Positions 1 through 62,249 of a DNA stretch of 64,000 nucleotides are shown here, one piece after another. The translations under genes were made by a program, and so were the position numbers. Source of the stretch: a virus; the IMG/VR virus record IMGVR_UViG_3300041964_000072, positions 68,739 to 132,738 of that record; one strand, 5' to 3'. The notes below the pieces were generated by a model. The model saw only the letters and a program-made list of their open reading frames with translations, searched no databases and was not told the origin of the DNA. Numbering within the stretch: the first letter of the stretch is position 1; each line of letters starts with the position of its first letter.

Positions 1-2
1 GG

Positions 3-1049
3 CTCAAAAGCTTTGAGGAGTTTTTCTGGGCGACTCACCCGAATAACGATAAATCAAAATTCCTTTGGTACAAGGACTATCAAGCCTACCTTAAGTTTCC
101 TAAGACAGATATTCCTTTTTCCTTGGAAGTGTTAAAAGAATTCCTACTTAACACCACTCCAAATACAGTATCGAGAAGGCGACAACTGCGTACCCTCCGA
201 ATGCTTATCGATCATGCTGGGTTATTGCCGAAGTACAAAGACTTCATAGACAGTAACCTGAAAAAAACCAAGGTCAAGGCAAAAGAAAAATACATCCCCT
301 CTCCGGACGAAATTGAGCAAGATATTTTGAGGATTAAGCCAGGACGTAAAGCCCCTAAATACACCCATGAGAATACGATGCGTTGGAAATACGTTCTTGC
401 TTTACAAGCTACTTATGGCTTGCGGATACACGAGTGCTGGAATATAGAAAATCTGTATGCCCCTGCCATGTTTAAGGGGAAAGAGATTCCAGCCCTTAGC
501 GATCCGGAGAATACCAAAAACCTATTAGTAGTAGGAGAAAACACTAAGACAGGATCAAGGCTTGCTATGCCTATATCTCCAGTCGGAAAGGATTGGGTAG
601 TTTTATTTGACCTGAAGAACATAAAACTACCAGAGCTTTCGATTAACCGAGAACATAAAGCCGTAGCCTATGCATCAGCCGTTTCTCAGTTCATGAATCG
701 CCATAATTTCAAATACACATCACATGCTCTGAGACATGCCTGTAACCATACCGCACGCACCCAAGGCATTGGTGTTCATGCCATTTCGTTAAGCCTAGGG
801 CACACCGAGGAGATGAATAGTACTGTATACAAACAGTTTATCCGACCAGAGATGATTATTGATACCTTAGAAAAAGGAGTGGAAGCACAAGTACTTAATG
901 CTTCTATCCCTAAGATTCCCTTGGAGCAAGCATTCTCACAGATTAGCTCCAGATACGCTTCTGACCCTGAGAAGTTTACGATCGCATCTGAGGTTTTGTC
1001 CTTAATCTACGGACTACCTTCTTCTCCCGAAGAGGTGTCAGTTACCTAA
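3..1049 (+). CDS. int: Tyrosine recombinase/integrase (5'-truncated by window edge)
   Basis: Frame is open from base 3. Catalytic motifs: YGLRIHE (R), KTGSR (K), HALRH (HxxR), LGHT, and a Tyr in STVYKQ. Confidence 0.9.
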   Translation, partial: LKSFEEFFWATHPNNDKSKFLWYKDYQAYLKFPKTDIPFSLEVLKEFLLNTTPNTVSRRRQLRTLRMLIDHAGLLPKYKDFIDSNLKKTKVKAKEKYIPSPDEIEQDILRIKPGRKAPKYTHENTMRWKYVLALQATYGLRIHECWNIENLYAPAMFKGKEIPALSDPENTKNLLVVGENTKTGSRLAMPISPVGKDWVVLFDLKNIKLPELSINREHKAVAYASAVSQFMNRHNFKYTSHALRHACNHTARTQGIGVHAISLSLGHTEEMNSTVYKQFIRPEMIIDTLEKGVEAQVLNASIPKIPLEQAFSQISSRYASDPEKFTIASEVLSLIYGLPSSPEEVSVT

Positions 1050-1133
1050 AATAGAATTAAATAAGCCTAGCCTACAGCGATCATCTTGTTCTGGATGATC
1101 GCTTTTCTTTGTACATCTACTAATTTGAAAGCC

Positions 1134-1802
1134 ATGTCCAGCAAAAGAAAACTCACTGGAAGTATTGCCACACCTGATCATGCTTGCCAAAAAGAAATGG
1201 ATCAAGCATTGCTAGAGGAAGGAAATCGTTACTTGAAACTCCTTCCCAGTAGCGTCTACAAGGCGTTTCCCCATGAGCAGCTAGTCATTTGGTGCAATCG
1301 TCACCAACGCTATGGAATCGTCACCACAGAGCTAGTGGACTGGCTCAGGGAGCAGATAGGTGACAGGTCAGTGATAGAAATAGCAGCCGGAAAAGGTGAC
1401 TTATCACATCACCTGAATATACATCCTACCGATGGCTATTCACAGACCACTGAATACGTTAAGGACTGCTACGAATCCTGTGGTCATATCCCCCTAATAC
1501 CTAACCCAGAGGTAGAGCGGCTAGAAGCTGTTCAGGCGATCAAGAAGTACAAGCCCAAGGTAGTGATTGCGAGTTGGCTCACTCAAAGGTATCTATCCGA
1601 TCCACGAACAAATTACTACTACGGAGTTGATGAAACTCAAGTCCGGATATTGAGCATGAAATACATTCACATTGGAAATACAAATGTTCATGGAGGTAAG
1701 ACAGTACTCAGGAAACCTCACAAAAAATACGTGTTTCCTTGGTTGGTCAGTCGAGCAGCAAATCAATCTCAAAACGCAATCTGGGTCTTTTCTAAGATAT
1801 GA
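1134..1802 (+). CDS. Class I SAM-dependent methyltransferase-like protein
   Basis: Motif I-like VIEIAAGKGDL; ATG at 1134 lies within the called ORF. Confidence 0.5.
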   Translation: MSSKRKLTGSIATPDHACQKEMDQALLEEGNRYLKLLPSSVYKAFPHEQLVIWCNRHQRYGIVTTELVDWLREQIGDRSVIEIAAGKGDLSHHLNIHPTDGYSQTTEYVKDCYESCGHIPLIPNPEVERLEAVQAIKKYKPKVVIASWLTQRYLSDPRTNYYYGVDETQVRILSMKYIHIGNTNVHGGKTVLRKPHKKYVFPWLVSRAANQSQNAIWVFSKI

Positions 1803-1828
1803 TATATACCAATATATAGAGGATTGGA

Positions 1829-2131
1829 ATGGCTACTACCGAAAAACTGTACACAATGAATGTACCTCAAAAACTTCTCAAGAGATTTCAGCTACATTGC
1901 AGAAAGTACCATAGTGATGCTGCGACTGTGATACGAAGTTATATGCAGGAAAGAGTTGACGATTCGGATACTCCTATAGTGGCTCACCTTGATATGGTCA
2001 AAACATTCTTTCAAAAAGTAGAGCAAGGGGAGACAGTCAAAATACAAGAAATAGTGGATATCTCTCGAATCCTTGAAATTCAACCGGAAAGCTTAATGGA
2101 TTTAGTAGATAAAGCAGAGGTAAACACCTGA
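1829..2131 (+). CDS. Ribbon-helix-helix (CopG/ParG-like) DNA-binding protein
   Basis: N-terminal YTMNVPQKLLKRFQLHC...AATVIRSYMQERV fits the beta-alpha-alpha pattern. Confidence 0.5.
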   Translation: MATTEKLYTMNVPQKLLKRFQLHCRKYHSDAATVIRSYMQERVDDSDTPIVAHLDMVKTFFQKVEQGETVKIQEIVDISRILEIQPESLMDLVDKAEVNT

Positions 2132-2140
2132 AAATAATAG

Positions 2141-2172
2141 AGAACCGCTTCAAATCAGGAGCGGTTTTCTTC
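2141..2172. terminator. Bidirectional intrinsic terminator
   Basis: AGAACCGCTT-loop-GAGCGGTTTTCT hairpin between convergent genes. Confidence 0.75.
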
Positions 2173-2174
2173 TA

Positions 2175-2792
2175 TTAGCCTTCCATTTCTCTACGGGCTT
2201 TGCGAATCTCATTGAGCATGGATTGTAACTGATTGACCTTGGTTTCGCTCGATGAGTCTTCTCTTTGCTCCTCCTCAAGCTGCTGAATTTCTGCCGCAAT
2301 ACTCTGCACAGATCCATCATCCCCAAGTAAATTGCGTGTCATCGCATTCAACCGAGCGATTGAATCAGTAAGCATTTTAATGTTTTTGGGATCAATTCGC
2401 TGATTACCTGATTCTTCATCATGTTTCGGACTCTTCAACTCCTCTACATACTCATCCAACTGAGCATTTATCAGTTTAAATAATTTATCTGCTGCATCCA
2501 ATGTTGATGAATCAAAACTAGCGCTAGCGGATAAAACATCTCGTAATTCACTGACATCCCGACGCTCTTTAAGTTTTGATTTGACAAGCGCTTTCAGTCG
2601 GCTCCACTTACCTTTCATCGACTGCATTCTTACCGTAACTGGCGAGACATCGTACTTTTCCGCAAGTTCTTTTAATGTCGGAAATGTAGTCTTCCCAGTG
2701 CTTTCGTCTACAACTCCGTGAACGTAGTCATACCGAACTGTGTCCCAATCTTCAACCTTTTTCGTAAAATAATTATTTTTTTCTTCAGCCAT
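2175..2792 (-). CDS. HTH protein, putative terminase small subunit
   Basis: N-terminal HTH PTLKELAEKYDVSPVTVR...KGKW followed by helical/coiled-coil regions, as in many TerS proteins. Confidence 0.45.
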   Translation of the reverse strand: MAEEKNNYFTKKVEDWDTVRYDYVHGVVDESTGKTTFPTLKELAEKYDVSPVTVRMQSMKGKWSRLKALVKSKLKERRDVSELRDVLSASASFDSSTLDAADKLFKLINAQLDEYVEELKSPKHDEESGNQRIDPKNIKMLTDSIARLNAMTRNLLGDDGSVQSIAAEIQQLEEEQREDSSSETKVNQLQSMLNEIRKARREMEG

Positions 2793-2998
2793 AATTGATT
2801 GAGAATTGAGCTTTTTGTTGCAGCAAGTTCAATCATTTATGCCTGTCATGTCTTCTCTTAAGTCTATCGAAAACGTGTCAAGAATGTCTCGCTAAATGTC
2901 TAATTAAAGGTCTAATTAGCGTTTAAAAAACTGTTGAAAAAACTTTTGTTTCACTGGTGAAAGTACTAGCCTGGTCGATGCCCATACATATGTACTAC

Positions 2999-3027
2999 TT
3001 GACAATCCAGGGTAACCGTGGTATTTC
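2999..3027 (+). promoter_or_regulatory. Sigma70-type promoter P1
   Basis: TTGACA-17 nt-TATTTC with TG at the extended -10 position. Confidence 0.5.
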
Positions 3028-3144
3028 AAATAGTCTTTACTTATGAATAGAACTGCAATCTATCAGGTATTCAGGATATATAAAATACTTATGAATCAGT
3101 AGTAAAATCACTCAAACGCATACACCACAAGGATTGTAGGATGT

Positions 3145-3173
3145 TTGCATATATTCGTATATATGGTTAGAGT
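3145..3173 (+). promoter_or_regulatory. Sigma70-type promoter P2
   Basis: TTGCAT-17 nt-TAGAGT. Confidence 0.55.
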
Positions 3174-3312
3174 ATGGATTCCTTGATTCATTCGGGGGGT
3201 TGCGACAGAGCAAATCAAAACACGTCACATTAACGCACAACACAGATTACGTCATAACGACACGGGTGGTTGTGAGCGTACAGACTCCTATGGGAATTTG
3301 CCGATCTGTGTA

Positions 3313-3332
3313 GAACTTTGAAAACTCAATAG
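3313..3332 (+). promoter_or_regulatory. boxA-like antitermination element
   Basis: GAACTTTGAAAACTCAATAG resembles cyanobacterial rrn boxA (GAACCTTGAAAA) and follows a boxB-like hairpin ACAGA...TCTGT. Confidence 0.65.
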
Positions 3333-3750
3333 CTGTATTTAGATGTGTTGTGTCTCGATTGTGAGCAATAGAAACGTCGTGAGATGTCTCTAACGCTTGA
3401 GAAGCGTATAACGTCTACCTGGAAACTGGTGTCAGGAATGTCTGTAACTGTCGGGCTATGGAGCCACAAGATAGCGAGTGATCTTGGAGATAGATACAGA
3501 TAGCCCGGATAGGAATCCCACCAATAGACAGGTATCTAGGACGTTTAAAGCCAACGGCTGTAGGAAAGCAATCTAGTTAATAGATTGTCTGGATACATAC
3601 GCCACGATGGGATCTGCACTGACTTGTAACAGCAAATTCTCTATTAACAGAGTCGAGCAAGTGCGATCGCTATGTTTAGCGGTCTATCGGGTGCAATACC
3701 CGGATCGGCTATGTGGCAGTCTTGCCGCAATCATCCACCACATAAGAGAG
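3333..3750 (+). ncRNA. Large structured leader/ncRNA (unassigned)
   Basis: Nested stems: AACGTC/GACGTT, ACCTG/CAGGT, TGTCTGT/ATAGACA, CGGGCTAT/ATAGCCCG, CAAGAT/ATCTTG, GCAATCTA/TAGATTGT, GATCGCTA/TAGCGGTC, CGGGT/ACCCG, TATGTGG/CCACATA. Confidence 0.65.
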
Positions 3751-3760
3751 TCAAAACAAA

Positions 3761-4786
3761 ATGACCGTAGCAACAAACGGAAACGGAAACGGAACGATCA
3801 ACGCTAACGATTCACAGACAACAGAGGTTAAACAACTAGAAATGATTACTACAGCAACAGACGATAACGCGATCGCATCAACCGAGACTGAAGCGAATAC
3901 ATCACAGCAAGCAAACAAGCCTAGTCAAGTTAATACCGACTTCGGAGTGTTTGAGATTGTCTATTACAGCCCTAAGCGTTGGCACTGGTATCACACCGAT
4001 CGACCCAATTCGATACAGATTGCAACAAGCAAAAAAGGTTGCCAGCAAGCCATTAAAAAAGCAGTTCAAACAATGAAAGATATGTTAGCCAAGCAAGCAA
4101 TCATTGATACCCCTGAAACGTCCACAGCAAGCGATCGCAGTGATGACGGTCTAACTGCTTTACATGAGAACAAATTCATCCTGGATAGCAAGCTAGGTAC
4201 TGTGGTGATTGAAAAAGTAGGTGATCAAACCTGGATCTGGTATCTGCAAGTTAAAGGCATCAAATCAGCCAAGATCGAACTGTCCAAAGATAGCTGCATT
4301 AAGGCAATTGAAGCGTTCACATCACAAACAACTCAAGCCAGTGTATCGAGTGCAGATAAGAGCGCTTTAGCGTATGCCAAGACAACGATCCGTAAGGTTA
4401 CTAACGATGAACTATTCAACCTACCAGGCGATCGCTTGATTATGGACGCTACCGCAAAAGGAAGCCGTATCTACGCGATCGGTACTACAACACAGTATGA
4501 AAATGTGACAACGATCAAAGGTGATCTCTATTTCATGGTGTCTAGCAATAAGACGGCATACCTAGGAAGCATTACAGATGAAACTGTGAACATCGATCCC
4601 GGCGCTTATGAGTACCTAAACACCATGAAAGTGTTACCTGAGTCTATGAAAGCTCTACAAGCCAAGATACAGAATGCATGGTGTAAGAAAACTGTTATTA
4701 GTCGCTTCCTAGCGTCACAAAAGGCTAAGGAAAGCAAGGATATGGAATTGCAGCAAGCCAGAATGCAAGCGATCCAAGACTGGTAA
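3761..4786 (+). CDS. First early protein, hypothetical, with an internal domain duplication
   Basis: Two copies of G..I...W.WY...I..SK..C..AI; HIP1-rich. Confidence 0.7.
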   Translation: MTVATNGNGNGTINANDSQTTEVKQLEMITTATDDNAIASTETEANTSQQANKPSQVNTDFGVFEIVYYSPKRWHWYHTDRPNSIQIATSKKGCQQAIKKAVQTMKDMLAKQAIIDTPETSTASDRSDDGLTALHENKFILDSKLGTVVIEKVGDQTWIWYLQVKGIKSAKIELSKDSCIKAIEAFTSQTTQASVSSADKSALAYAKTTIRKVTNDELFNLPGDRLIMDATAKGSRIYAIGTTTQYENVTTIKGDLYFMVSSNKTAYLGSITDETVNIDPGAYEYLNTMKVLPESMKALQAKIQNAWCKKTVISRFLASQKAKESKDMELQQARMQAIQDW

Positions 4787-4808
4787 ACATCCGATATACA
4801 GCAGTTCA

Positions 4809-4843
4809 TAGGCTAGGGAGTGCGATCGCTTCCTAGCCTTTTA
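4809..4843 (+). terminator. Intrinsic terminator with HIP1 in its loop
   Basis: AGGCTAGGGA-GTGCGATCGC-TTCCTAGCCT followed by TTT. Confidence 0.75.
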
Positions 4844-4869
4844 TTAGTCCCTACAGTGAGGTTTTTACA

Positions 4870-5478
4870 GTGACCAGAACAAGACAATCTGAATACAAAA
4901 AACTTAAACAGTTCAGTGATTATGGACGTTATTACACTGACACTTCCCTGTCTAAGGATGTAAAGAAAGTCAGGGAAGAGAAAATTGTCGGCAATGAACC
5001 GTTACAAGGCAAGAGTCACCACGTTAAGCGTAAGTCAACGGAGGAAGGCATACACAGCCAATACAGGCTAGAGATATCTGATAACTGGGTGCTAATCACT
5101 ATCACACCTACGATCAAAGCTCTTAAAGGTGTTAAGACAGTAACTAAGACGGCAAAGGTTAGTAAGGTAAAGACTCACAGAATAGGCAGAGTTAACAAAT
5201 ATGGAAAATTTTGGGAGTTGCCTACCTTAGACAAAATTGCCAAGCTAGTACAGCAAAAGCCAAAAGTACTTATTGAGCAATGTCAAGACGTTGTTAAACA
5301 GTTCTACCAGTCTAGAGAGATCCCGCAATACACCACGAAAGAAGTGTTAGAAAAAATAGGCGATCGCTATCAGACGGCTATCGTCACTCACAAGGTAGAG
5401 GTGCCAGAGGTGCCATATAAACCGACATACAAAACACTGAAAACAGCGGATACCACGGTTAAACTCAGAACCGTCTAA
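4870..5478 (+). CDS. Basic hypothetical protein
   Basis: 202 aa ORF rich in Lys/Thr, bounded by terminators. Confidence 0.65.
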   Translation: MTRTRQSEYKKLKQFSDYGRYYTDTSLSKDVKKVREEKIVGNEPLQGKSHHVKRKSTEEGIHSQYRLEISDNWVLITITPTIKALKGVKTVTKTAKVSKVKTHRIGRVNKYGKFWELPTLDKIAKLVQQKPKVLIEQCQDVVKQFYQSREIPQYTTKEVLEKIGDRYQTAIVTHKVEVPEVPYKPTYKTLKTADTTVKLRTV

Positions 5479-5496
5479 CCTACCCTAAAAGCTCTA

Positions 5497-5601
5497 TCCT
5501 CCCTAGTCCCTTGGCTAGGGAGTTTTTTTGTGTCTGTACATCCTGCTATCCTCATCCCCGCAAGTTTTCCCCTAGTCCACCACGGCTAGGGGATTTTTTT
5601 T
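5497..5601 (+). terminator. Two tandem related terminators
   Basis: CTCCCTAGTC...GGCTAGGGAG-T7 and TCCCCTAGTC...GGCTAGGGGA-T8. Confidence 0.8.
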
Positions 5602-5611
5602 GCTATTTGAT

Positions 5612-5645
5612 TCGGTTTACCGATGTATAGTATTCGGTTAACCGT
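5612..5645. promoter_or_regulatory. Pair of palindromic operator-like sites
   Basis: TCGGTTTACCGA (5612) and TCGGTTAACCGT (5634), 22 bp apart, flanking TATAGT. Confidence 0.5.
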
Positions 5646-5674
5646 ACAAGCTAATTTTTTTTTTAGGGTTTCCT

Positions 5675-8600
5675 ATGCAATCCAAGACTAAACGATTTAT
5701 CGCGTATCTTTCCGATGGCTCCAGGATCATCCTATCTGGCAATGACATTCAGGATGCCTGGAACAGTGTTGAGATGATTTTTTTTGAGCGGTGCGATCGC
5801 ATCACCTCTATTTTGTGTATTCGCTAATAGGAGATAAGACCATGACAACTTTTATCGCAGATCAGATCCCTACTCAAGACGAGTTCAAAGCGCTTGCTGA
5901 GGGCTACTACATCCAGACGGTAGAGCGGAAAGACAAAATGATGTGGTTTTCTTCGGCATACCAAATCAATCTCTTCCTTCTACCCTACTTTTTGCAGTAC
6001 ATCACATCCCAAGGTAAGCAGTTCAAAATCACACACAACAACCAACAAATTGCAGTAGAGATTTTATAACCATGAAAACGGTTACATTCAGGGAGCTTGC
6101 AGAATTTTCCTATGCCCTCAAGCCAGATTTTGAGGGCTACCTATCTTCTCTGGGGATTCCCTCAGAGGGCTACATACGAACGTGGATCGAGTGGAAATTG
6201 CTGAGGCGTATCTTTCCAGGGGTACGATATAGCAACGGCTCCATAGGGTTCGTAGATGCCTGTGGTGACAGGTATGCGATCGCTGTGGAGGTGCGTGTAT
6301 TTGAAGCCAAGCGGTATATCTCCAGATCCTCTATGAGGCGTATCCTGGAGATATCCGGACTCATAAAGTAGATTGAATGCACATTATTTTTAGACCATCA
6401 AAAGGGAAGATATATCTGTATCTGTCCAAACGAGAGATCTCAGAAATCTCTTCCCAAGCGTCTGAACACGACACAGTTTTTGTGTCTTCATCCGAGCTGG
6501 GGTATCAGGTATACAAACAGCTCGACTTAATTTTTCATGACCGTGCGGAAATGGAAAGAATGATTGTAGTAGAAACAGACGAGTTCCCAGGATAAATAAA
6601 TGAACATCACAGTAAAAGCAATCAAACGAAACAGTACGAGCATTTCTCTACAGGTATTTTGTGAGGACAAGCTACTAGGTGCGATCGCAGTCATGGACAA
6701 GGGATTTCAGGTAAATGCTACCGAAAATCGGATGCATGATCGACCAGAATTCCCCCATGCAGCAGATGCGATCGCGTGCTTGCTCCAGAGAAAGAAATCA
6801 TTGATCGACGGCATTGTGCGGCGAATGGAGGAGGAAGAACGATACAAGATGCCTGAAGTGCATCCCCTTGTTATTGCTGTATATCAACGCTATTACCCAC
6901 ATAAGCCAGTGGTATTAAGGAGATATGACGACCTGTACTTAACCGACGATGATTTACTTCCTTGGTGGAAGGATAACAATGATCACTGGTTTTCCTCGGA
7001 TTCCTCTGCGCCTAGAATCCCTTGGAGTTTTGTAGGTCTAGCCTGTATGTTGCCTTCTCATGAGGCAGAGCTGCAAGCTAGGCAAGACATCCCCGTAGAG
7101 ATTGTTATCGACTGATAGGATGACCCTACACGCGATCGCTATAGCGGGAAGCTGCTCATCAAATGGGTGCGATCGCATTGAGAGGATTTTGTTATTCACC
7201 TCTCTTTTTGAACAGATGACAAAACATTCAGACTTACTACCAGGCTTGCTCGAAGATAAAAATTTGTTTCAGCAATGGTTAGCACAACAACCAGCAGAAA
7301 CAGTAGTAGGAGAAACCTGTAGCGGATATAACTGCCCCATTGCAAAATATCTAAATCAGCATGGGGTTGAAAAAGTAGATGTTGCAAGTGACTGCATTAT
7401 TTACCCTGACCCGGATCGATTGGAATATGTATTACCCGAATGGGTAAAAGAGTTCATCGCTCAATGTGACGCGATAGATTCCAGGAACATCGTTCCCGTA
7501 ACTGCGAGTGAAGCGATCGCTATCCTGGAGAGCGAGACTCTTATGAACGTCTACAGTGCAACTTAGACCGCTATAAGAAAACAATGAAAAGTGAGGAAGA
7601 TTAAAATGCGTAAAAGTAAAGTGCAACATTTCGCTCTTGTACAGCACACGGCATACACACGTAATAGTGATCTCAGGTTCAGTGAGGCTGTAGAGGTAGG
7701 AGCAGTTTGTCTGGATGAAGATCAACTCAGAACATTACGCGATCGCAAGGTGTTTGTCACCAAGAGTTATAAGGAGTGTGATGAGGAAGCCGTAAAAGAA
7801 AACTACCCAGATCCTAAAAGTATTTCTTGGTATCCAAAGGCTCTTGGGAACTTTACCCGGATCAAGGGGTTTGGTGACACTATGTTTTACATACCTCCAA
7901 ACTCTCACACAGAAGATCGCCCAAATCCTATAGCCATTTTCTACGCAGACGGAAAGCTGCTATTCAGTGACAAGGATTCTGAGGGTAAACCCCTCTCCCT
8001 TGCTACCTATGATGATTACATGAGATGCGATCGCACAAAAATCAACATCTGTGAAGATTTTTCTCCTAATGACATCATCCAGCTAGAGGAAGGGCTGTTT
8101 ATCCTTGATGATGAAGTCTTTCCAATCACCTTTTGTCAAATTTCATAACCTCTTCAATACAGCAATGCCGTCCTAGATTTTCCTAAGACGGCTGCTCGTG
8201 ATTTTGGATGGAAAGATACGGAAAAAGAAGCGTAGGAGGCAACATGAGCGGTAATGAATGGAAGAAATTTTCTAGGACAGCTTCCGATCCTACTGGAAGC
8301 ATCTCTGCTGTGATGACCGCTGATCAACTCATCCAGCAACATCCAGAGCTGAAATCTCTCATAGAATCTCTTCAACAAGAAGAGAGCTTCGAGATGAAGT
8401 ACTCCAAGGCAGATCCCATCGTTATCGAAATCAAGTCCCTTTGGGAAATCTGGTAGATGCGATCGCACGATGCTGCTCCCACGGTGTTAGAGAGGGAATC
8501 AATCAAGTAAGGAGTATTTATGACATCAGAGCAGCGTCAAGAAATGATAGACAGAATGACGGCACAAGATATCAAAATCATACTAGGATGGGTATCCGAA

Positions 8601-9190
8601 AATGATTATGAATTTCTTGTAACCGTACTGCAAGGAGAAGGTTTTAAGCCGTATAATCAACTATCGGATGATCAAGTCAAACAAGAATATGATGGTCGAG
8701 AAGGTTTGCATGACATTGATGTAGAAAGTATATACCAGAAAATCAAGTCATAGAAGTCGAGTCATTGAGAAATAACCCGTATCTTATAGGTGCGGGTTTT
8801 GTTGTAAATAAGGAGATCTCGATGGAAGAATACTCGAAAGAATTGCACGGAAAAAGCTTACTGAACTCTCTAGGCACTCCAGAAGGAACTTATACCGGAG
8901 AATACTACCTAGAAGCGGGTATTTACTGGTATAAGGTAGAGGACAATAACGGTAATATGTTCGAGACAGAGGAGTGTCCTTTAATCCTTCACAAGCCTTT
9001 GTTAGATTCAATACCTCCCTACGAAAGAGATGATAGCAAGGAAGATATTACTTTTTTGATTCCGCCCACAATGTCGGGATGGCATGAGAGAGATGATAAG
9101 AAGATTGTCTATGTATGTGTCGATAAGGCGGGAGGATGGTATACCAAATTTGTGGTAGATAGTTGGAGTAAAACATGGTACATACCCTAG
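5675..9190 (+). other. Cluster of about 10 small hypothetical early ORFs (5841-6069, 6072-6371, 6377-6595, 6600-7115, 7102-7566, 7591-8148, 8208-8456, 8520-8753, 8765-9190)
   Basis: Tightly packed co-oriented ORFs, many with GGAG-type RBS. Confidence 0.75.
7102..7566 (+). CDS. Hypothetical protein, paralogue of 18857-19465
   Basis: Shared pattern W..VG...CPI..Y...PEW...D. Confidence 0.6.
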   Translation: MLSTDRMTLHAIAIAGSCSSNGCDRIERILLFTSLFEQMTKHSDLLPGLLEDKNLFQQWLAQQPAETVVGETCSGYNCPIAKYLNQHGVEKVDVASDCIIYPDPDRLEYVLPEWVKEFIAQCDAIDSRNIVPVTASEAIAILESETLMNVYSAT

Positions 9191-9269
9191 GAAAAACAAT
9201 GATCAGAGTAGTTAACTTATCCACAAAGGAGGAGAAGTATTACGATCTTCCTCCTGAGAAGGAGAAGTC

Positions 9270-12200
9270 ATGAACAATAAAAGCCCTTTACAGCAACTCG
9301 TCCAAAAACTCACATGGAAACAGTGTGAAAATATCCTTGAAAACCACGGGTTCGCTGTGTACGAAAGTGAATCACTGGGGAAACTGCGACAAGCTGTAAA
9401 GATAAACATCAAGGATGGAACCATTTCCCAGCAATATGTTGAGAGTATTTTGGAGGCAAGCAATAACAATGGAAACTAAGCTGATTCATGTCCCACCCTT
9501 GTCTGTGGTGGACGTTCTCTATCCAGGCAATCCGGAGTTTGGTTCAATCCACGCTCAAACCTTTGTCCTTACCTCGGAAGAGTTTTACTCAATTAAGGAC
9601 AGGGATGATGTGATCAAATTCATAGTCTCCAAAGGCTTTGAAAATTACCTGGATTTTAGGGCACACATCGGGCAAGCAAGGTATAAGTGGACGCTCCCAG
9701 GCTCACAAGAAAAGTGGATGGAAGCTAAATTTGGTGATCGGTTTGACTACGAATTCGATGTAGATGAGGCTGAAGAGTAATGGAGGCAAAAACCATATAC
9801 AGCTACGCAATCCTCCAAATATCTATCAGGAAATTCGCTGTGATTCAAACCAGCGGGGGTCTTACGGGAGTAACATCTGTGTGGGAAATAAAATCCCGTC
9901 ACGGATCGCATTTCAAAGCAGTAGAAGCATTACAGCAGATTCAGGAGAGACAAAATGGCTCAAATAATGGGATATAAACACCTAGAAATGCCTATCGTCA
10001 AGATAGATGACAGGGAATACGCCGTAGGGACAGAAGAACAGGCAGACAATGCGGCAAGAGAGGCAATAGAAGGATCTTTATCATCCTTTGAGCCGTACTT
10101 TATATCCCAACACTCCACAATCCAGGACTATGAGATTATAAATGCAATAAAAAAAGAAGGTACAAAAGCTACACGCAAAATCATTACCGACATAGACGCT
10201 TTTGTTGATAACGCTCTGAGCCTAAGTAATCGGGGGGAATTTCTTTCCCCTGTCAACGGTACAGAGGAAACTCTTGCAAGCATAGACGATGATGTTGCCC
10301 AAGAGATTGCGACGGTTTTAGGTATCCCAGAGGATAAGTGGAAGGATACCTTTGTGTATCAAGTTCAGTAATTTTAGGACAGGTATTGTAGAACGGTAAT
10401 AGTCCCGCTTCTTCCTTGAGGCGGGATTTTTGTACAACTAGCAACACACAATCTCCATGAACAAGGAAGATCAGATCCCAAGCATGTTAAAGAAGTCAAG
10501 TCTTTTTGGAGTAAATTTCTACAAGGCATTACATAAAAAATGCTCTGCAATGGAAGATACAGACATAGCGATGATCGGACATCATCAGTTAAATAAAAAG
10601 ACTGGTGAATTAGTCTACGTCAATCATGCTTCCTTCCCAATACACGCTCTTAATCAGGCGATAGCAATCTTTAATCAATGTGCTACCCATACGACCTACT
10701 ATCCAGAAACGGAAGAGTGGAAAGCCATCTGTCAAGTGTTGGTGACAAATACCAAGGAAAAACAACTGATCGTAAAGCAGTACTTCATAGCTCCTGAAAC
10801 CAACCGCTGCATAAAGGTGGATTTAGTGACATTGAATGGAGATACAGAATACCTCGTGATTGACTACGGTATTCCTCATAGGATGAACTGCCATATCCAG
10901 GCAAGCGATCTTTTGGTAGATAAGGAGTTTTGTATTCAGTTGGACAAGGACTTTCCTACACCTATCAGGGAAGCACGTATTGGTAAATTCTTGGCAACAC
11001 ACTAGGAGGCAGCATGACGTTTGAAGAGGCTAGAAGACACGTAATGTATGTGGTAGATGATTCCCTAAATGGACGACGTTTAGGCGAGGATATTCATGCT
11101 GTAGTTAAACCCCAAAGTGTTCTTGTTGGATGGCACTGGGAACCAAATTTTATGTTTGTGGCGATTAATTCCTACCTGGGGGTGACTATCACGAATGAAG
11201 AGGCAGAAGAACTCGCAACGGATTATTTAAGGGAAATCCACTGGTTTACTGACTCAGAAGCCAACAACGCATCAGACTACATTATTAGAGGTTAATTCAA
11301 TGGCAAATTTCAACCTTTTGCTCAACACCATTAGCGTCGAAGTGGAATTTTTAGGGAGCAGTCTTCTCCTAGATCCTGTAGGGGAAGATTCTCTTATGGA
11401 GACGCTTAAGGCTACCACTATCGACAATCATGATGTGGACGGAATAGTAGAGGCAAGACTAGACGACGTGAAGGAAGATGGCACACACGTTACCCTTGTT
11501 GAGACTTTTTTGGATAAGTTTGAGGTATCAGAGGAGGACAGGGAAACGCTGGATGTTGGATTCTCCATCACAATAGAAATGCCTGGAATTGAGTATGTAG
11601 AATGGATGCTCATGCGCTACGGATGCATGATGCACAGACAACAGGAACTCTCCAAAGAGTACATGGACTGGTGTTTTGATCAGGGACTTACCCAATAACC
11701 AAGGACAATATTATGAACATACCTTCAAAGAAAACCATTCAGAAATATCTTGAATGGCTGGATGATGATCAGGTAAACAAGGTTCGGGGACTGATGGAGG
11801 GGGTGTTAGACCCAGAAGAGGTAAGTGAAGCTACTGCAAAGTGGGTACGCAGTTGCTACAACGAACCTAGTGATAGTGAGAAAATTATGTCCGCCATAAA
11901 TGACGTTATCGAGTGTCATGGAGTAGAATCCCTTTCCAGTAATGGAGATGTAGTAGCAACATACTGCAATACGGGAGATACTTACAAACCTACTGTTATG
12001 TATCTTGAGAAGGAGTGTCGATTCAGAATTATGTCTTGGGGAGATTATGCAGAAAAACATCCCGTAGATTAAGTTTTGATCAGGTGCATCTACTGATAAA
12101 CGATTGTAAAACGAATCAAGGAGTACTCAAATGTCAGGCATGGTTAAATTTTCTTTTCTTGTAGGTGATGTGAACTGGTTAGATCACGGAGGTAAGTGGA

Positions 12201-14542
12201 TTAGTCAAAAGTTTAATAATGGAGAATTTGACTACTGGCTAGTAAAAGAGCTTCATAATACAGAGGAAAATAGGGATTTTAATACCAAATACCTCTGCAC
12301 ACTATCTGTAGTTGCTCCTAGTCAGTATGAGGACTTTGAGCAAGCCTTTGAATCTTGTGGCTGGGAGGTAGAGATAGAGGATCTATCCGACACAGATAAG
12401 GTAGAGATAATTCACTCTTACTCAGGTGGCTCACAAGAATGGAGTGGCACTGACAACAACTACAGTAAGTTGTTTCGAGAATGCTTGATAGAAGCCAACC
12501 TGATTACAACGCTGTTACTTCAAGCTTATCTATATAGGCAGAAAAATGCACTCGGAGACAATGGATGGAACAAGCTTAAGGGCACAAGTGCTATAGACTC
12601 ACTTCGATCAAACACTAATAAGTAACCAGGAAGGATTCTGATGAGCAAATATTTCGATGCAATGTACAGCAGATACGAGCGTGTACGGTCAAGACTGGTG
12701 CAAATATATGATTTTGCTGCAAGACACTATCAAACACATGAGGAGCTACTTGAAAGAAAAGGAGAGATATACAAAACTAATGATTACAAAAAACTCAGCT
12801 CGTATTATGTTGGGGCGTTTAACGAACTTAGCCGAACAAAATTGCAAGAACTATGGAGCTACCATTTACAGAGTGGATATCTCGTAAGAGGAAAGTTCTA
12901 TCCAGCTCGTGAATGTAACGAGGTTCTTTATGAGTGTGGAAAACATAACGGTATTGTTGTCTGGAAGAACTGCCCTGAAAAGATATTCAGCAAAAGTGCG
13001 GATTTTGTAGAAGAAGTTCCATCCACCAGTGAACAGTTAGAGGTAAACTCATGAGTTACGCAAGACTGAATCGAAACGAATGGAACCAGCTCAAAGTAAT
13101 CTGGGATCTGGAAAAAATTAAGGCTGATGATATGCTCTGGATTCTCAGGGACATGACCTATCTAGATTTCTGGGTAGAAGTCCTTGAGTATGACCTCTGC
13201 AATGGTTATCAGTCTGTTGCTCCAGAGGATATCGGTGCCCTTACCGATGCCTTTATCATTACTGACGGAGAGCAATACTGGTGGGACAGCAACCACCAGA
13301 TCCGCAACCCTTGGGATGATATGTACATAGATGAACCGTGCATATTATTTCCGGCAGACGCTTTACACCCAATAGGAAACCTTCCGTGAACAAAATCGTA
13401 CAGACCGTAGATAATAACGAAGACTTGCGCTACGAAGTCCTCTGTCTTGTAGAACCTATCGTAATTAATTGGTACACAGACGATCCTACTTTATGGAGAG
13501 CTAACGCAAGAACGGCTGCGATCGCAGAAATAATTCCCTTAATTAGTGAGTGGTTTCTGCGTCCATCCATTCAATTCAAAATCAAAACGATTCTGGGAGG
13601 TAACATATCTTCCAAGAAATATCGGGAACTACGGGGGGAGATGTCCGATGAAGGGTTCGACTGGAATCCTATCGCTTCCCATTACGCGAACAAGAGGTAC
13701 AACGAACTTTGGGCAGATGCTAACGTACCTCCTTCCCTGGTGCCAGAGTTCCTGAAAGAATGTGACGACGAAATATAAAAGACAAGGAGCAGCGACAATG
13801 GTTTTTGATCGTATCCGTGAATGGTTAAGGCGCAATCCTAAGCCGTCTTCATCAGATGAAATCCCTGAATGGATGCTGGAAGAATATCGGAAAGCAATAA
13901 AGGATGCTGAGGCTTACTGTGACTCGCATCCTATTGATTGGGATGCTGTAGAGGAAATATCAGCAAGACTTGATGCAGAAGAATCGCAAGTAAATGGAGA
14001 TCAGTAAAATGCCGTCGATACGTGACTCGCTTGTACCAACTCCCAAGGGCAACCGTTATTACCCCTTCCTTTTCTACAGAGGCAAGGAAGCCTACACCTT
14101 ATCCATCCAGTATGTAGGCTATGGCAGTAATGATATTCCAGCCCCTTCCGCACGTACACAGAACCGATTTGATGTATCGTGCTGGGAAAGTCATGGAGAT
14201 AAGTCAGTTACCTTTTTTCCTGCTTTTGTCATAGAAGCCATCGGCACTCACCTAGAAAACACAGGTTCTCTCCTATGTAGCCCAGGAGAGGCGCAAGAGA
14301 TTTACGATACCTTCCTGGAGTGGGACAGGAGGGAATATGTAGATCCTGGAGTACATTTTAAGTTACGGCATTATCGCCCTAATAACAGTGAAGGGTTTCC
14401 AGAAAGATATACTCTCTGGACTGTAGACTTGTACACCAACGAAGGTGAGTTTATTGGAGAGGGGAAAATCAGCGATGTTAATAAAGGAAATTTATTAGAC
14501 CACATGGAGCGGGTCTGTCCTACGATTCCCATCCAAAAATAG
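9270..14542 (+). other. Cluster of small, mostly acidic hypothetical early ORFs (9270, 9415, 9780, 9955, 10457, 11014, 11300, 11713, 12131, 12641, 13051, 13338, 13762, 13994)
   Basis: Contiguous + strand ORFs with RBSs and frequent stop/start overlaps; terminators at about 10401-10431 and 14555-14590. Confidence 0.75.
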
Positions 14543-14613
14543 CGCTCTTTCCATTCCGGCTAGGAAACCGCCACTAGCCGGATTTTTTATAGGCGGACAC
14601 TTAGAGGTTAGAC

Positions 14614-17600
14614 ATGACAGATCTACGCCGGATACGTCCAGGGGATGAAATTTTCATTACTTTCCCCTACGACTCCATATTTTCAATCCGTGACATCGAA
14701 GAAAAGGTAGAAATTCCAGCAGGAAGCAAAGTTCCTGGAAAGTTCTTTGCTGATATGGGTAAGGACTGGAAAGTACGTGTTGACTGGGAGGGCTTAAATC
14801 TTGAAAACGGATATCGGGTTTGGAGACTTAAGAAGGAAATGGTACGGATACAGAAGCGGTATGTTAAGGACGTACCCTCATGCTATTACCCTGTAAAGTG
14901 CGATCTCGATAAAGTTACCATCGAACTGCTCTGGGTAGAAAACCTAGAGCTTCGCTCTGAGATGATATACATTCCCCAGTACTGCCTGGTAGACCCGTCA
15001 AAAAGAGACAAGTCCCCTAAGTTCACTCCCGAAGCAACCGATGCACTTTATGACGAGGTAGCTTTCCTTCTGATATGGGATGAACCTAACGAATACATTT
15101 GGACGGAAGGGAGGAATACTCCATTCAATCCAGACGCAACTTTTCTTTTTAACGATACCTCAAGAAAGTTGAATGCAGCGCTCTACCACATGCCCGGAGT
15201 CCCGCTCAAGGTGGAAAAAGATCTTTGGGATGAATACTTTGAGATGTACCAACCCCTAATCATGGATTGCTACTGTGAAATAGATGGAGTGCAACTAAAC
15301 AAAACACTCTTCTATGTTTCGGGAGAAGGGACATGTACCGGAGGAATCGAGGACAACGGGAACTACTACCTAGTCAGCATCCCACCAGATGCCCTTATCT
15401 GGACACATTTGAGGAGTGAAGCAAAAACGATGGAAACGATCTTCCATAACCGATAATTAAACATGCGATCGCATAATATTCCATCCAGTTATGCGATCGT
15501 CTCACTATTGCATCAGTAGGATAACACAGCAAAGAGTTGTCATCAAAATAGATAAAAGGGAGTTACATCATGTTTGAGCGATCAAAAGAAGTAAGAGCAG
15601 AAATGGAGGCAAAAGGTTGGGTTTGCTTGTTGGATTGGTATGAATGCCCAAGCACCTCTACCCAGTATTACTGGAACCCAGAAACACAAAGGGTCATTGC
15701 CTACCCCTGGAAAAATCCAGAATATGATATTGAGGAATACAGCCGTGAGGATCTTGCAGGAGAAAAGGGGAAATACCTTCACCCTACATTGCGTAGGAAA
15801 TTGGAAAGTTTTCTCACCAACACCCCTATGGAAATCTCTCAAGAAGATTATTATTTTGACCGGATTCGGAGAGAGGATTACAAGGGGCATTGGTTCAGAT
15901 CTTCCAACGATTTCAAGGAAATCACTTACGAAGAGACGTTGATAAACGTACATAAACGGGAACTTTCTTATTGGATATACAGCGTCAAAGAGTCTTCTAA
16001 ACATCCCAGAGATTATCGTTTTGCTTGCTTCAATTGGAATACAAAACGAATTGGAAAGCTTGGTGATTTCAGTTATTCCTCAAAACGAGAAGCGTTTAAA
16101 GCACTAAAAGTATTTACAGGAAAGGAGTGTTAAATATGCAAGTATATACAGCTAAATGGGTGCTTGCTAAGACGATTCTGGATGACGATAAAATCATTCA
16201 GAAATTTTGCAAGGACTATGATGATGAGCCTGAGCTAACGAAAGATCCAAATGAAGCATGGTTTTGGAATAATCATGCTGCTGCAATGAATCAGCTCAAG
16301 GACATCAGGAAGCATTCTCCAGAGACGCAACTTTATCCCATAAAGGTGTTTCTCAGAGAAGTTCAAGGAAAAAAGGAGAGTAATAGCAATGGAAAGTCTC
16401 GATCAGCTAATACAAAGCGTTCCAGAAGGACATCAGTGGATAGTGTATCGAAATGAGAAGAGTACTCTGTGTATTGCCTTGGATTTTCGACCAGAAGATC
16501 CTCGATGCCAGAGAGCGTACTTCCTTGCTAACGATGCCCTTTACGTTATTGACGTGGAAGCTCACAGAGAACATCTAGCACAGCAAAAGTAACCCAATTC
16601 TTGCAACATTAATGCCCTCCCACAATCCCGTGAGGAGGGTTTTTTCATGGAGGTTTTATGTATCAAATACCGATGGTTCATCACAACATATTGGCATGGG
16701 CAACTACCAATAATTCAAATCATTTGATTGTTTTAAGGAGGTGGGGAGATACTTTTGTTGTCCATCTATACCTCGTAGATAGCGATTGTTTTGAGTATGG
16801 AAACTATGCAGATGATATCAAAGGAGCGGCTAAAAAATTCACAGAAAAAATACAGGCATATCGGAGGATTCTAGATACATGCCCCTTCTAGAATGTAGAG
16901 AGGTGATAAATATTTTCCAGGCATGATTAGAAAGCTTTACTCTAATCATGTCCGATGAGTGACAACGATCCGAAACAAATACGGTTTCCTGTTCAACCTA
17001 CAACCGCTTCCGAACAGGAATCCGTTTCTCAATATAATGCCCAAGTAGTCTTTACAAAGCATGGATATAAAATCCAGTACGGAGAGTATATCTTAGGCGC
17101 AAATACTTGGCTAACTGAGGCAGAGGCTTGGGCATGGCTTCAAGAAAATGGTAGCGAAAATCAATAATTTCAGGAGAATTTCATGAGCATTTCTTCAACT
17201 GTTTTTGACGATGGCAACCGCAGTACAGATACAACTTTGAACACAATCACAGGAGTTGTGCATCTGAAAGAACATGTCGAAATAGATGAGTGCAGGGGAT
17301 TAAGTCGGTCGTCATGGGAAGGGGTGTTAGAAAGTATTGGCACCCCATATTCTACGGTGAATGGGCAGACGGTTCTAACTGGAAATATCCGCAAGATCAT
17401 TAAGGAGGACAAACCGATGTATCCTCTAAAATGTCACTACATTACTACCTGTCATCCTGAGGCAGGGCTTTCTGATAATCATGCCAGGGAAGGGGAGATC
17501 TTAATCTGTGCATCCCTGAGTGAGGGAATGACAGACCGAGATCTAGTAACTGCTCTCGTAGCGGAATGCGATAAAAGCCCAGACTACTGTGATATGTGGG

Positions 17601-17776
17601 ATGCGATAGACCATCGAGCAGGGGTCTTGGAGCAAGCTATTGCGGAAGAGTTTTTGGGGTTTAACACATCTCTTCATAATATAGATACAGGCGTAAATGA
17701 TTCTGAAGATTTAGGTCTTTACATCTACGCTTACCTTTCTTTCACACCAAAGGAACATCAAAATTGGACGAATTAG
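14614..17776 (+). other. Hypothetical early ORFs (14614, 15570, 16127, 16389, 16658, 16955, 17183)
   Basis: Co-oriented ORFs; terminator GCCCTCC...GGAGGGT7 at about 16615-16647. Confidence 0.7.
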
Positions 17777-17780
17777 AGGA

Positions 17781-18239
17781 ATGGAAGGATTGAACACTTG
17801 TGCATATCTCAGAAAACAAATCATCCTCCCCCAGGTGCATCCTGTAGGTATTGATGAATTGGGTAGCGTAGGGGCAGAACTACAGCACGCTATCAAGAAG
17901 AAAACCCGCAAAGACTGGAATGATGTAATGCTACGAAATGCGTGCCATTACAACGCCTTACGGGTTTGTGCCATTGCACATTTTTACAACATCAACATCT
18001 ACTATGTGACGGGGGAAGTGAGTTATTCAACTCCAGAGTCTACAGTGTATTTGATTCACTCGTGGAACTACATCCCAAGCATAGATGCCTATATCGACTT
18101 AACCTTTGAAGCATTTGCTGACTTGCGTAGTGATTACATGCTGGCTTTATCCAAGCCTGTCCCGGAACTACTTAAGGAGGGATATGACTTCAAAGGGGCA
18201 CGAGACATATATACCCAGTGGCTAAACAGGCAGCGCTGA
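17781..18239 (+). CDS. Transglutaminase/papain-fold-like protein
   Basis: Candidate Cys-His-Asp triad: ACHYNA, IHSWN, YIDLT. Confidence 0.5.
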   Translation: MEGLNTCAYLRKQIILPQVHPVGIDELGSVGAELQHAIKKKTRKDWNDVMLRNACHYNALRVCAIAHFYNINIYYVTGEVSYSTPESTVYLIHSWNYIPSIDAYIDLTFEAFADLRSDYMLALSKPVPELLKEGYDFKGARDIYTQWLNRQR

Positions 18240-18300
18240 GTATTGCGATCGCATAAACCAAAGACCTCCGCTCCAGGGGGTCTTTTTTATTGGAGGAAAA

Positions 18301-18864
18301 ATGAAACGCATACAAAAAATCCCTCTACCAGAAGACATTGCCCGGAAAATGGCGGACTATCGGCTCAAGGGATGGGGAGTCCCTACCGATTACATCATTT
18401 TTCACTTGAAACTGGCTCACGCAAGTATGCAGCAGCTTGCGGTAAATCACCAGATCAAGGCATCCTTCATCGAACCTGATGGATGGATGGATCGGATGCT
18501 TGTCCTTAACGTCCTGGTGCGGCGGGAGGGAAAGTACTCGCTACTCCAATGGCATAGCGGCAATCAGTGGTGGATGAAGCTCTCACCCTATGGAGGATGG
18601 AGTATCTACACAACCCCAGAGATGTATTTACCCAAGGTGATAGAAGCTGATCCACACGTTAATTGGAGTGCTATTTACCCCGTACTGGAACATTTATCCA
18701 ACGGGCATCCTATTCGCATCGAGGATTTTTGGATAAAGTTCCACGACCTACAACACACTGACTACCTCGTACTAGGTGAGTTCTTGTGCTTGCAAGGAAA
18801 GTTTATCAACGCACGCTCTACGGAGGTGATTCGGAGTGCCCTAAGCAACATATCACTTGAATAG
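18301..18864 (+). CDS. Hypothetical protein
   Basis: ORF with GGAGG RBS, downstream of the terminator at about 18262-18290. Confidence 0.65.
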   Translation: MKRIQKIPLPEDIARKMADYRLKGWGVPTDYIIFHLKLAHASMQQLAVNHQIKASFIEPDGWMDRMLVLNVLVRREGKYSLLQWHSGNQWWMKLSPYGGWSIYTTPEMYLPKVIEADPHVNWSAIYPVLEHLSNGHPIRIEDFWIKFHDLQHTDYLVLGEFLCLQGKFINARSTEVIRSALSNISLE

Positions 18865-19465
18865 TTCTGAATGGTCTGTATCCCTTTACAGACCAATTAC
18901 ACCACTTTGTTTTGCAATATTTAGGGGATTCATTCTTATGTATGACTATCCAATGCATACTGTCTGGAGCAACGATCAAATTCGCCAATGGCAAAAGGAA
19001 GTATTGGCTGTGACAGATACCGACATGATGAAAGCTTGGTTTACTGAACGACATGATCAGGAGGTTGGTTCTGCCCACAACGTTGAGAAGTGTCCTATCC
19101 GCAACTACTACAATGATCTGCTGCCACATCTCGATATTGAGGTAGGGCGATATCAGGTCAAGACAGACATACCTCCCAAACTGTTTAAACATGGTCAATT
19201 CAAGCCCCTAGTGATTAGTGACATCTATTATCTGGGAAATTCCTCTTTGCAATGTCCGGATATGCCGGAATGGTTAAGCAAGATCGTGACTTTGATCGAC
19301 ATAGAATACTGCCACAATACTGAACTTGGTCAAAAAATCAGCAGTGGAGAGGTGGAAGGTCTTTACCATGAGCTTCACTTCCCGGTATTGGGATGGCAAG
19401 TCGTAGCCCTCATCGAAAAAGTGTTAGCCGAATATGCAGTAGAGCAAGAGGCAATAGCAGCGTAG
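18857..19465 (+). CDS. Hypothetical protein, paralogue of 7102-7566
   Basis: AWF...VGSAHNVEKCPIRNYY...MPEWL. Confidence 0.6.
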   Translation: MNSSEWSVSLYRPITPLCFAIFRGFILMYDYPMHTVWSNDQIRQWQKEVLAVTDTDMMKAWFTERHDQEVGSAHNVEKCPIRNYYNDLLPHLDIEVGRYQVKTDIPPKLFKHGQFKPLVISDIYYLGNSSLQCPDMPEWLSKIVTLIDIEYCHNTELGQKISSGEVEGLYHELHFPVLGWQVVALIEKVLAEYAVEQEAIAA

Positions 19466-19474
19466 TATATCTAA

Positions 19475-19511
19475 ATGCGATCGCTCTTTCCTCAAAGGGC
19501 GATCTGTTTTT
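19475..19511 (+). terminator. HIP1-containing terminator, copy 1
   Basis: ATGCGATCGCTCTTTCCTCAAAGGGCGATCTGTTTTT. Confidence 0.8.
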
Positions 19512-19535
19512 ATCAACCATCAACAAGGAATCAAA

Positions 19536-20048
19536 ATGCCAGAAAATATTCTGTACTACATTGTCCAGACAAATCCGAAAAAGGAGAAAGATTTTCCCAA
19601 GTACCTTGATAACAAAGGGCTTCTAAATCCTGATAGTGGGGAAGCTCAGAAGTTCTTGACACCTGAAGATGCAGAAAAAGCTATCCAGAAGGTACATTAC
19701 AAACGTCGCCCAAATCTCATAGTCCAGCCTATTCAGGAATCAAAGATGCATACGTTCAAAAGAACGGGTGATGATGGCTATGAGCGACTGGCATTGAGAG
19801 TCCCTTCCAAAGAATCCAAAGAAAGTTTTTCAGTAGATGTAGTAGATGCCCAAGGAAAGCTCATGTGTCGATTGAACACATTTGACTTTGGGAATGGGAC
19901 AGGGAACGTAGATGTGATTATCCTAGATGAAAGCAAGCAAGGTAGGCTTATAGCTCTATTAGACGGCAAAATGGTAATCAACCAAGTCATACCAGGCACT
20001 ACTGTATTTGCAGTGCAGATAGAGCCGAAGACTGAACCCGCTTCCTGA
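19536..20048 (+). CDS. Hypothetical protein flanked by 37 bp direct repeats
   Basis: ATG ORF with AAGGA RBS. Confidence 0.7.
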   Translation: MPENILYYIVQTNPKKEKDFPKYLDNKGLLNPDSGEAQKFLTPEDAEKAIQKVHYKRRPNLIVQPIQESKMHTFKRTGDDGYERLALRVPSKESKESFSVDVVDAQGKLMCRLNTFDFGNGTGNVDVIILDESKQGRLIALLDGKMVINQVIPGTTVFAVQIEPKTEPAS

Positions 20049-31719: not shown

Positions 31720-31998
31720 AGACGGAACCCTTCCTTGACTCTTGGCACTCTACCGTACCAACTATATATATAGAAAATACCGATGGAACTACCGAGCAAC
31801 GCCTATTGCATGAGTGAGCGCTGGTGTGAGGCACTGGAAACCTACCCAGATGGTTATGAACAACCCATAGTTATTGGCGTAGACCCCGGCTACGGCATAG
31901 TTTGCGAAGGCGACTGCTTTCACCTGTGCTGTCTACTGGAAGATCGAGAAGATGAATTCCCTTTTTAGTCGTCTAGAACACAGACACATTCTTGTTGT

Positions 31999-32047
31999 TG
32001 TAATACAGAGAGCAATACTGTAATACACAGCCGACACAATGTAATAC
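31999..32047 (+). repeat. Phased TGTAATAC direct repeats
   Basis: Copies at 31999, 32019 and 32040, plus GCAATAC at 32012. Confidence 0.6.
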
Positions 32048-32116
32048 GGAAAACCGGGAGTAAGTCTCTACCCAAGTAGGGACTTTTTTATATCTTGCCT
32101 CGCAAAAATCATTCTA

Positions 32117-32144
32117 TTGACAACAAGAAAATCAGTCCTAGGAT
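32117..32144 (+). promoter_or_regulatory. Sigma70-type promoter
   Basis: TTGACA-16 nt-TAGGAT just downstream of a terminator (about 32064-32088). Confidence 0.6.
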
Positions 32145-32350
32145 AGATGTTTCTAAGTGGAATGACATAGGAGTGAACATAAAATAGGCTCCATTTAATC
32201 GTGATCACACGGATGACAAGTATACAACGTCACAATTGAAGTTCCGTATAAACACTCGGTACAACCCCTGCTGAGTCGGCTACTATGGATTTTGTGAGGG
32301 AAAGGCGTTCTGCTTAACACAATTCCAGTTAACAGTCCACCTTCCTTAAA

Positions 32351-32367
32351 GAACCTTGACAATTCAA
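32351..32367 (+). promoter_or_regulatory. boxA-like element 2
   Basis: GAACCTTGACAATTCAA. Confidence 0.6.
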
Positions 32368-32648: not shown

Positions 32649-32653
32649 AAATC

Positions 32654-62180: not shown

Positions 62181-62249
62181 ACCTAAGACAATCAATTTGT
62201 CAGTATAGACAATACATCTATATAACGAGGACAACATTCATGATTACAC

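Follow-up and report, generated by a model that had tools for sequence, protein, structure and literature searches.

Gene arrangement around the ORF-free gap

The window analysed is the last 64 kb (64,000 nucleotides) of the IMG/VR virus record IMGVR_UViG_3300041964_000072, which has 132,738 bp and an estimated completeness of 65%; coordinates are those of the window unless the record is named. By several signs the virus is a cyanophage: its sequence contains HIP1 sites (GCGATCGC), and its TnpB is around 60% identical to copies found across many cyanobacterial genomes. The isolates nearest to its family-A DNA polymerase are the Pseudanabaena phages PA-SR01 and Pam2, at only 30% identity. The left half of the record contains, on the minus strand, structural and lysis genes, including those encoding TerL, a portal-like protein, the major head protein and an endolysin. 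This half is followed by a gene encoding an XisA/XisC-type integrase, and then by two genes on the plus strand, one of 238 aa and a repressor-like one of 100 aa. Further on are a leftward 205-aa gene (2175-2792) and a gap without open reading frames (2836-3760), after which rightward genes follow one another in a long series from 3761; all the genes downstream of the gap are on the plus strand. The phage is temperate-looking. Relatives of its integrase, with 32-38% identity, lie within unrelated small integrative elements that do not carry the leader described below. A replication origin proposed from skew was rejected, the turn in skew being broad and tracking gene orientation.

The gap, 925 nt long (2836-3760), lies between the leftward 205-aa gene and the first of the rightward early genes; at a 60-aa threshold, nowhere else in the entire 132.7-kb record are both strands free of ORFs over such a length. 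In 2836-3762, all three types of stop codon interrupt every one of the six frames, and the gap is non-coding. A hidden gene and an alternative genetic code were both considered and rejected, as no code opens any frame. The window also shows a second large gap without ORFs on either strand, of 685 nt (31969-32653), which folds with a z of -2.2 and whose centroid structure shows, close to the 5' end, a hairpin with a U run behind it.

Both genes that flank the gap encode orphan proteins. The first early gene (3761-4786, plus strand) encodes a protein of 341 aa whose N-terminus is rich in Asn, Gly and Thr and whose interior seems to contain two modules resembling each other. A word-indexed search among 5.8 billion proteins returned only the self-match for the 341-aa and the 205-aa proteins, and a full HMMER pass over 1.84 billion representative proteins did the same for the former. 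The divergent 205-aa gene (2175-2792, minus strand) encodes an N-terminal HTH followed by predicted helices, which we read as a coiled coil, and is an orphan by sequence. Its PHROG matches to DNA-binding proteins and small terminases are weak (E 1.6e-3 to 5e-3). In the ESM Atlas the protein resembles phage proteins of ~190 aa and small terminases (feature score 0.94-0.96, TM 0.62-0.65), and its AF2 model, with a pLDDT of 49, is too poor to serve as a search query. These likenesses weakly suggest a gene encoding a terminase-small-subunit-like or a DNA-binding protein. The gene is isolated in its leftward orientation, 12 kb from the TerL gene (record 57710-59293, minus strand) and separated from it by the lysis and integration modules; no other TerS candidate was seen beside TerL.

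No terminator was found between the gap and gene 1. Downstream, the plus strand shows a 13-bp terminator-like hairpin with a weak T tail (4810-4839), located 30 nt before gene 2, and two tandem strong terminator-like hairpins after gene 2 (5499-5522 and 5568-5593), which likely end the first transcription unit. The preliminary description of this DNA had placed tandem promoters and a boxA ahead of the structured stretch, and neither was recovered. The sigma-70 scan gives no promoter in the gap at threshold. The two rightward candidates of its AT-rich part (3103-3173), a -10 TAAAAT at 3103-3108 and TTTGCA-18-TAGAGT at 3144-3173, are both 8-of-12 matches, which is chance level. On the plus strand of 2836-3760 there is no match within 3 mismatches to a GCTCTTTAACAA-like boxA consensus, which over the window gives 67 matches versus 78.6 expected. 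Over positions 1-20000, promoter-like sites of sigma-70 type are strongly depleted (19, versus 41.6 +/- 6.0 in shuffles) and terminator-like hairpins are enriched (26, versus 15.7 +/- 4.0).

Predicted fold of positions 3333-3750

The 418 nt of 3333-3750 fold with an MFE of -140.3 kcal/mol, versus -115.5 +/- 5.4 in dinucleotide shuffles (z -4.57), and none of 100 shuffles reaches the native folding energy. The chief part of this signal is in a core of 141 nt (3408-3548), with a z of -3.8 to -3.9 (-3.94) and an MFE frequency of 0.19, and the segment 3369-3596 as a whole shows a z of -4.20. The remaining segments are ordinary: z is +0.30 in 2837-3179, -1.86 in 3180-3368 and -1.41 in 3597-3760. 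A highly structured RNA of about 420 nt had been claimed for this stretch; structure above that of shuffles is indeed predicted, but the signal is limited to 3369-3596, and on these models the supported structured object has ~140-230 nt, not 420. The outer long-range pairings that join the ends of the 418 nt shift with the boundaries chosen for folding.

The count of at least nine helices given earlier is exceeded, with 15-16 local helices predicted at mean pair probabilities of 0.84-1.0. Helices H1, H2, P1-P4 and H4-H7 are stable for transcript starts at 3115, 3180 and 3333 (0.84-1.0), and H3 (3549-3559) is weaker than the other local helices (0.61-0.86). At the 5' side, hairpin H1 (3369-3392) shows two stacked helices and a GUGA tetraloop, with pair probabilities of 0.90-0.99, and hairpin H2 (3393-3407) has an ACGCUU/AAGCGU stem and a GAG loop, with a pair probability of 0.91. 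They are followed by the core multibranch domain (3410-3545), of 136 nt and with two branch points, whose pair probabilities are 0.89-1.0. Its closure by AACGTC and GACGTT, already noticed in the preliminary description, is present in the MFE structure and in the centroid and ensemble; the AACGUCU/GGACGUU helix pairs 3410-3416 with 3539-3545 at a mean pair probability of 0.89. Within the domain, P1 is a 12-bp closing stem (3410-3421 with 3529-3545), P2 pairs 3427-3431 with 3519-3523, the P3 arm (3435-3506) bears two terminal hairpins (3454-3465 and 3467-3486), and P4 is a hairpin at 3507-3518.

Downstream of the core are the hairpins H3 (3549-3559) and H4 (3560-3596), the latter with a 7-bp core at 3569-3587. 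Further 3' are H5 (3665-3684), whose 5' arm begins within a HIP1 site at 3663-3670, H6 (3688-3702) and H7 (3712-3729). As a block, the 3' hairpins H5-H7 (3665-3729) are not above chance. The start region of gene 1 (3754-3761) is predicted to be unpaired. Some helices derive from simple TGTC/GATA repetition and from the HIP1 palindrome. An alternative helix between CGGGCUAU and AUAGCCCG was rejected, with a pair probability of 0.0.

The minus strand of 3333-3750 folds nearly as stably as the plus strand (z -3.97 and -4.57, respectively), and the MFE structures of the 418 nt contain 5 and 11 G-U pairs, respectively. The definition of the core fold differs between the strands: on the plus strand, neither its MFE frequency of 0.19 nor its ensemble diversity of 5.1 (shuffle median 29.5) is equalled in any of 300 shuffles, and on the minus strand 51 of 300 shuffles are equally well defined. 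Since the core fold is well defined on the plus strand only, the predictions favour an RNA read rightward, toward the early genes. The core is both stabler and better defined than its shuffles, on one strand, which is the thermodynamic standard for a non-coding RNA. Such a strand-specific and well-defined fold is compatible with a new non-coding RNA or a leader and does not prove either.

Comparison with the rest of the phage and with known sequences

Against the rest of the phage, the GC-corrected MFE ranks 8 among 630 windows of 420 nt, about 20 among 1327 windows of 200 nt and 13 among 2822 windows of 141 nt, which places the region no higher than the top 1-2%. Set against the RNALfold local optima of both strands (1437, non-overlapping, 100-160 nt long), the energy of the core is unremarkable (z -1.6); the core ranks 4 by MFE frequency and its ensemble diversity is among the lowest. 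Several coding regions fold as stably or better, several structures of equal stability are found in coding regions or in the omega-RNA array before TnpB, and in folding energy the core is no outlier among the local structures of this phage.

Three of the other structured regions may be described here. Positions 13129-13233 (plus strand), 105 nt within coding sequence, form a structure stabler than the core (z -2.9 among the local optima) and as well defined, with an MFE frequency of 0.32. The stablest local structure of the entire record is on the minus strand of record 6538-6672 (window -62201 to -62067), in an ORF-free gap of 321 nt; it has 135 nt, -58.2 kcal/mol and a z of -4.2 among the local optima, and shows no Rfam or tRNA match. 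The gap before the TnpB gene (62250-63503), at 61713-62249, folds with a z of -4.56 and contains four repeated units of ~50-130 nt, each starting with GCGAGTAG; Rfam is silent there.

The preliminary description could not match the stretch to tRNA, tmRNA, RNase P, group I introns or common ribozyme cores. ARAGORN detects neither tRNA nor tmRNA, whether in the window or in the remaining record, and at the gathering threshold the 4227 models of Rfam 15 give 0 matches across the window and none in the remaining record. These models presumably include the C4/CI antisense RNA, GOLLD, ROOL, HEARO, 6S, riboswitches, and cyanobacterial and cyanophage motifs. With E up to 10, the segment 2700-3900 gives two chance matches only (E 2.6 and 4.9), far under threshold. 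A tRNA-like 3' part was rejected, the Tymo_tRNA-like match (E 4.9) being due to chance and the would-be anticodon loop having 6 nt.

The searches for relatives were likewise negative. The stretch has no match by blastn in 50,697 phage GenBank records. No homologue was found in IMG/VR, scanned by the flanking proteins and by three patterns on viral contigs, nor in JGI metagenome contigs, scanned with two patterns, where the sole match, of 21 nt, falls by chance within a rho gene. A scan of GTDB genome contigs with the integrase protein gave no homologue of the leader, and a DNA search of 401 cyanobacterial genomes with 3180-3760 gave only chance-level matches of 20-36 nt. A covariance model of the core, built from a single sequence and with itself as the only positive control, found nothing in 151 cyanobacterial genomes or in the Pseudanabaena phages PA-SR01 and Pam2, and no further match in its own record or in four loci of integrase relatives. 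No paralogous copy of the core was found elsewhere in the phage record. The flanking proteins are carried by just one other contig (Logan SRR13608739), which matches at 100% identity across 10.4 kb. Judged by their titles, none of the papers found on cyanophage antitermination or put RNA bears on the element. It is a singleton, in a phage without relatives in the databases searched, and a predicted candidate.

Possible roles of the gap and of its predicted fold

The region is a real non-coding one, with a credible, strand-specific predicted RNA domain. With every downstream gene on the plus strand and no terminator found ahead of gene 1, a rightward transcript that crosses the gap would carry the fold as its leader. 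The reading placed first, held tentatively and with somewhat less than an even chance of being right, is that the stretch serves the rightward early operon as a structured 5' leader acting in cis. Transcription would start in the AT-rich part of the gap (3030-3180), and the stretch would be the middle of a long (~580-650 nt) untranslated region heading the rightward early transcript. During synthesis of the RNA, 3369-3596 is predicted to fold into an autonomous row of hairpins around the 136-nt multibranch domain, whose dominant feature would be a long, nearly coaxial P1-P2-P3 stack. Such a stack would suit an enzyme that processes double strands specifically, or a specialised binding protein. 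Acting in cis, the core domain may offer a platform for recognition or processing, being either cleaved by a double-strand-specific (RNase III-type) enzyme or bound by a protein of the phage or the host. It would in this way set the stability and the output of the first unit, gene 1 and gene 2, up to the terminators at 5499-5593. Occlusion of the ribosome binding site is unlikely because the start region is predicted to be open. We infer that 3369-3596 is transcribed in vivo, that it folds in this manner and that it has such a role.

A close parallel in layout is the pL-N leader of phage lambda, where nutL and an RNase III-sensitive structure are ahead of N, followed by tL1. Like the leader proposed here, it is long, structured and untranslated, precedes the first early gene in a temperate phage, and belongs to a unit ending at intrinsic terminators. 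Unlike the lambda leader, the one proposed here shows no boxA and no boxB-type loop and is about three times longer, its first gene is an orphan without likeness to N, and there is no sequence similarity.

A different possibility, rather unlikely but still the one to be weighed most closely against the structured leader, is that the gap acts as DNA, as a switch or packaging region beside a TerS-like or regulatory DNA-binding gene, and that the RNA fold is incidental. It draws on repeats: the 15-mer GTGTCARGAATGTCT is confined to the gap, where it stands twice in the same orientation, 554 bp apart, and is absent from the rest of the 132.7-kb record. One copy (2875-2889, plus strand) is beside AATGTCT and GTCTAATTA repeats (2883-2920), in a cluster located 83-128 nt upstream of the leftward gene, and the other (3429-3443, plus strand) is in the core, where it covers P2, the junction and the 5' strand of P3. 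AATGTCT occurs 3 times in the gap versus 0.08 expected. The copies of the 15-mer and the AATGTCT/GTCTAATTA cluster are candidate operator or TerS-recognition sites. In one variant they would be operator- or stoperator-like repressor sites, and the 15-mer pair could loop out the promoters between its copies; in another, they would be the TerS recognition repeats of a pac or cos site. The distal operator of TP901-1 CI and the stoperators of mycobacteriophage L5 offer a precedent, with an asymmetric site repeated one way and one copy downstream of the early promoter region. Unlike those sites, the ones described here are putative, have two copies only and are of modest significance, since a 14-of-15 direct repeat appears in 6 of 300 gap shuffles (p ~0.02). 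The HTH of the adjoining 205-aa protein and its likeness to small terminases or DNA-binding proteins fit a role as DNA, as do the neighbouring integrase and repressor-like genes, the ordinary fold energy and the folding of the minus strand. A single well-defined fold specific to the plus strand, however, is not predicted by a DNA site. The TerS identity is weak as well, given the PHROG E values, the pLDDT of the AF2 model and the distance from TerL, and no attB-like or tRNA-derived host match was found in the genomes searched with the integrase-to-gap region. That region gives two matches only in cyanobacterial genomes, 74-81% identical, and these are unlike attB because an attB core is expected to be near-identical.

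Two other explanations retain the RNA and change its function. The core could be a stand-alone or processed small RNA released from the leader and acting in trans, as an immunity or antisense RNA of the kind of the P4 CI RNA and the P1/P7 C4 RNA, or as a decoy of a host factor. We hold this improbable. The core is autonomous and closed, with its 12-bp closing stem and well-defined fold, and is found in the early-operon leader of a temperate-looking phage, as are the P4 and P1 RNAs; yet no terminator or processing signal bounds it, it has neither an Rfam match at E up to 10 nor a second copy in the record, and no convincing complementary target was seen, the best inverted matches having 13-22 nt and 73-85% identity. 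The P4 CI RNA and the P1/P7 C4 RNA have ~70-80 nt, are processed from the early leader and act via repeated complementary targets. The present candidate shares with them the position of a structured RNA in the early-operon leader of a temperate element and differs in showing no such targets and no Rfam match.

The core could also act in cis in processive antitermination, put-like or nut-like for a phage factor, with RNA polymerase modified to pass the terminators at 4810-4839 and 5499-5593; we regard this as very unlikely. Its position between the presumed promoter region and the downstream terminators would suit such a function, and so would the three terminator-like hairpins found within 2 kb downstream, the first of them only 30 nt from gene 2. 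The tail of that first hairpin is weak, though, and the tandem terminators may simply close the unit, since 5594-5790 leaves space for a promoter. The gap lacks a plus-strand boxA, as described above. The boxB element is a short stem with a G-first GNRA-like pentaloop, and H2 instead shows a GAG loop, or UGAGA with its closing U-A open. The put RNA of HK022 is a compact, cis-acting antitermination RNA with two stem-loops in ~70 nt, versus a 136-nt multibranch domain with two branch points and flanking hairpins in this phage. What the two have in common is the proposed place between an early promoter and terminators and that no known protein partner would be required. In a control, Rfam finds no family in the HK022 genome itself, and its silence is uninformative on put-likeness because no put family was reported there. 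A put-like reading of the element has no specific support.

To our knowledge, early transcription control in temperate cyanophages has hardly been studied, and we know of cyanobacteria as lacking Rho and so relying on intrinsic terminators. If the structured leader is real, an RNA heading the early operon would be a handle on the timing of phage gene expression; for now the candidate serves to direct the mapping of transcripts in biocrust cyanophage samples and is not an established element. A further-reaching version, in which the core is a cis RNA that reprograms the host RNA polymerase, or an immunity RNA, and the first cyanophage example, is a long shot. Under this version it would represent an RNA class of its own, without sequence relationship to put, nut and C4/CI, and would control whether transcription proceeds from the immediate-early unit past the tandem terminators. 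GOLLD and ROOL are RNAs of 500-800 nt, widely conserved with covariation and often beside tRNAs. Unlike them, the candidate shows a supported core of 140-230 nt and has no tRNAs, Rfam match or relatives; like them, it is a multibranch non-coding RNA candidate carried by a phage or prophage.
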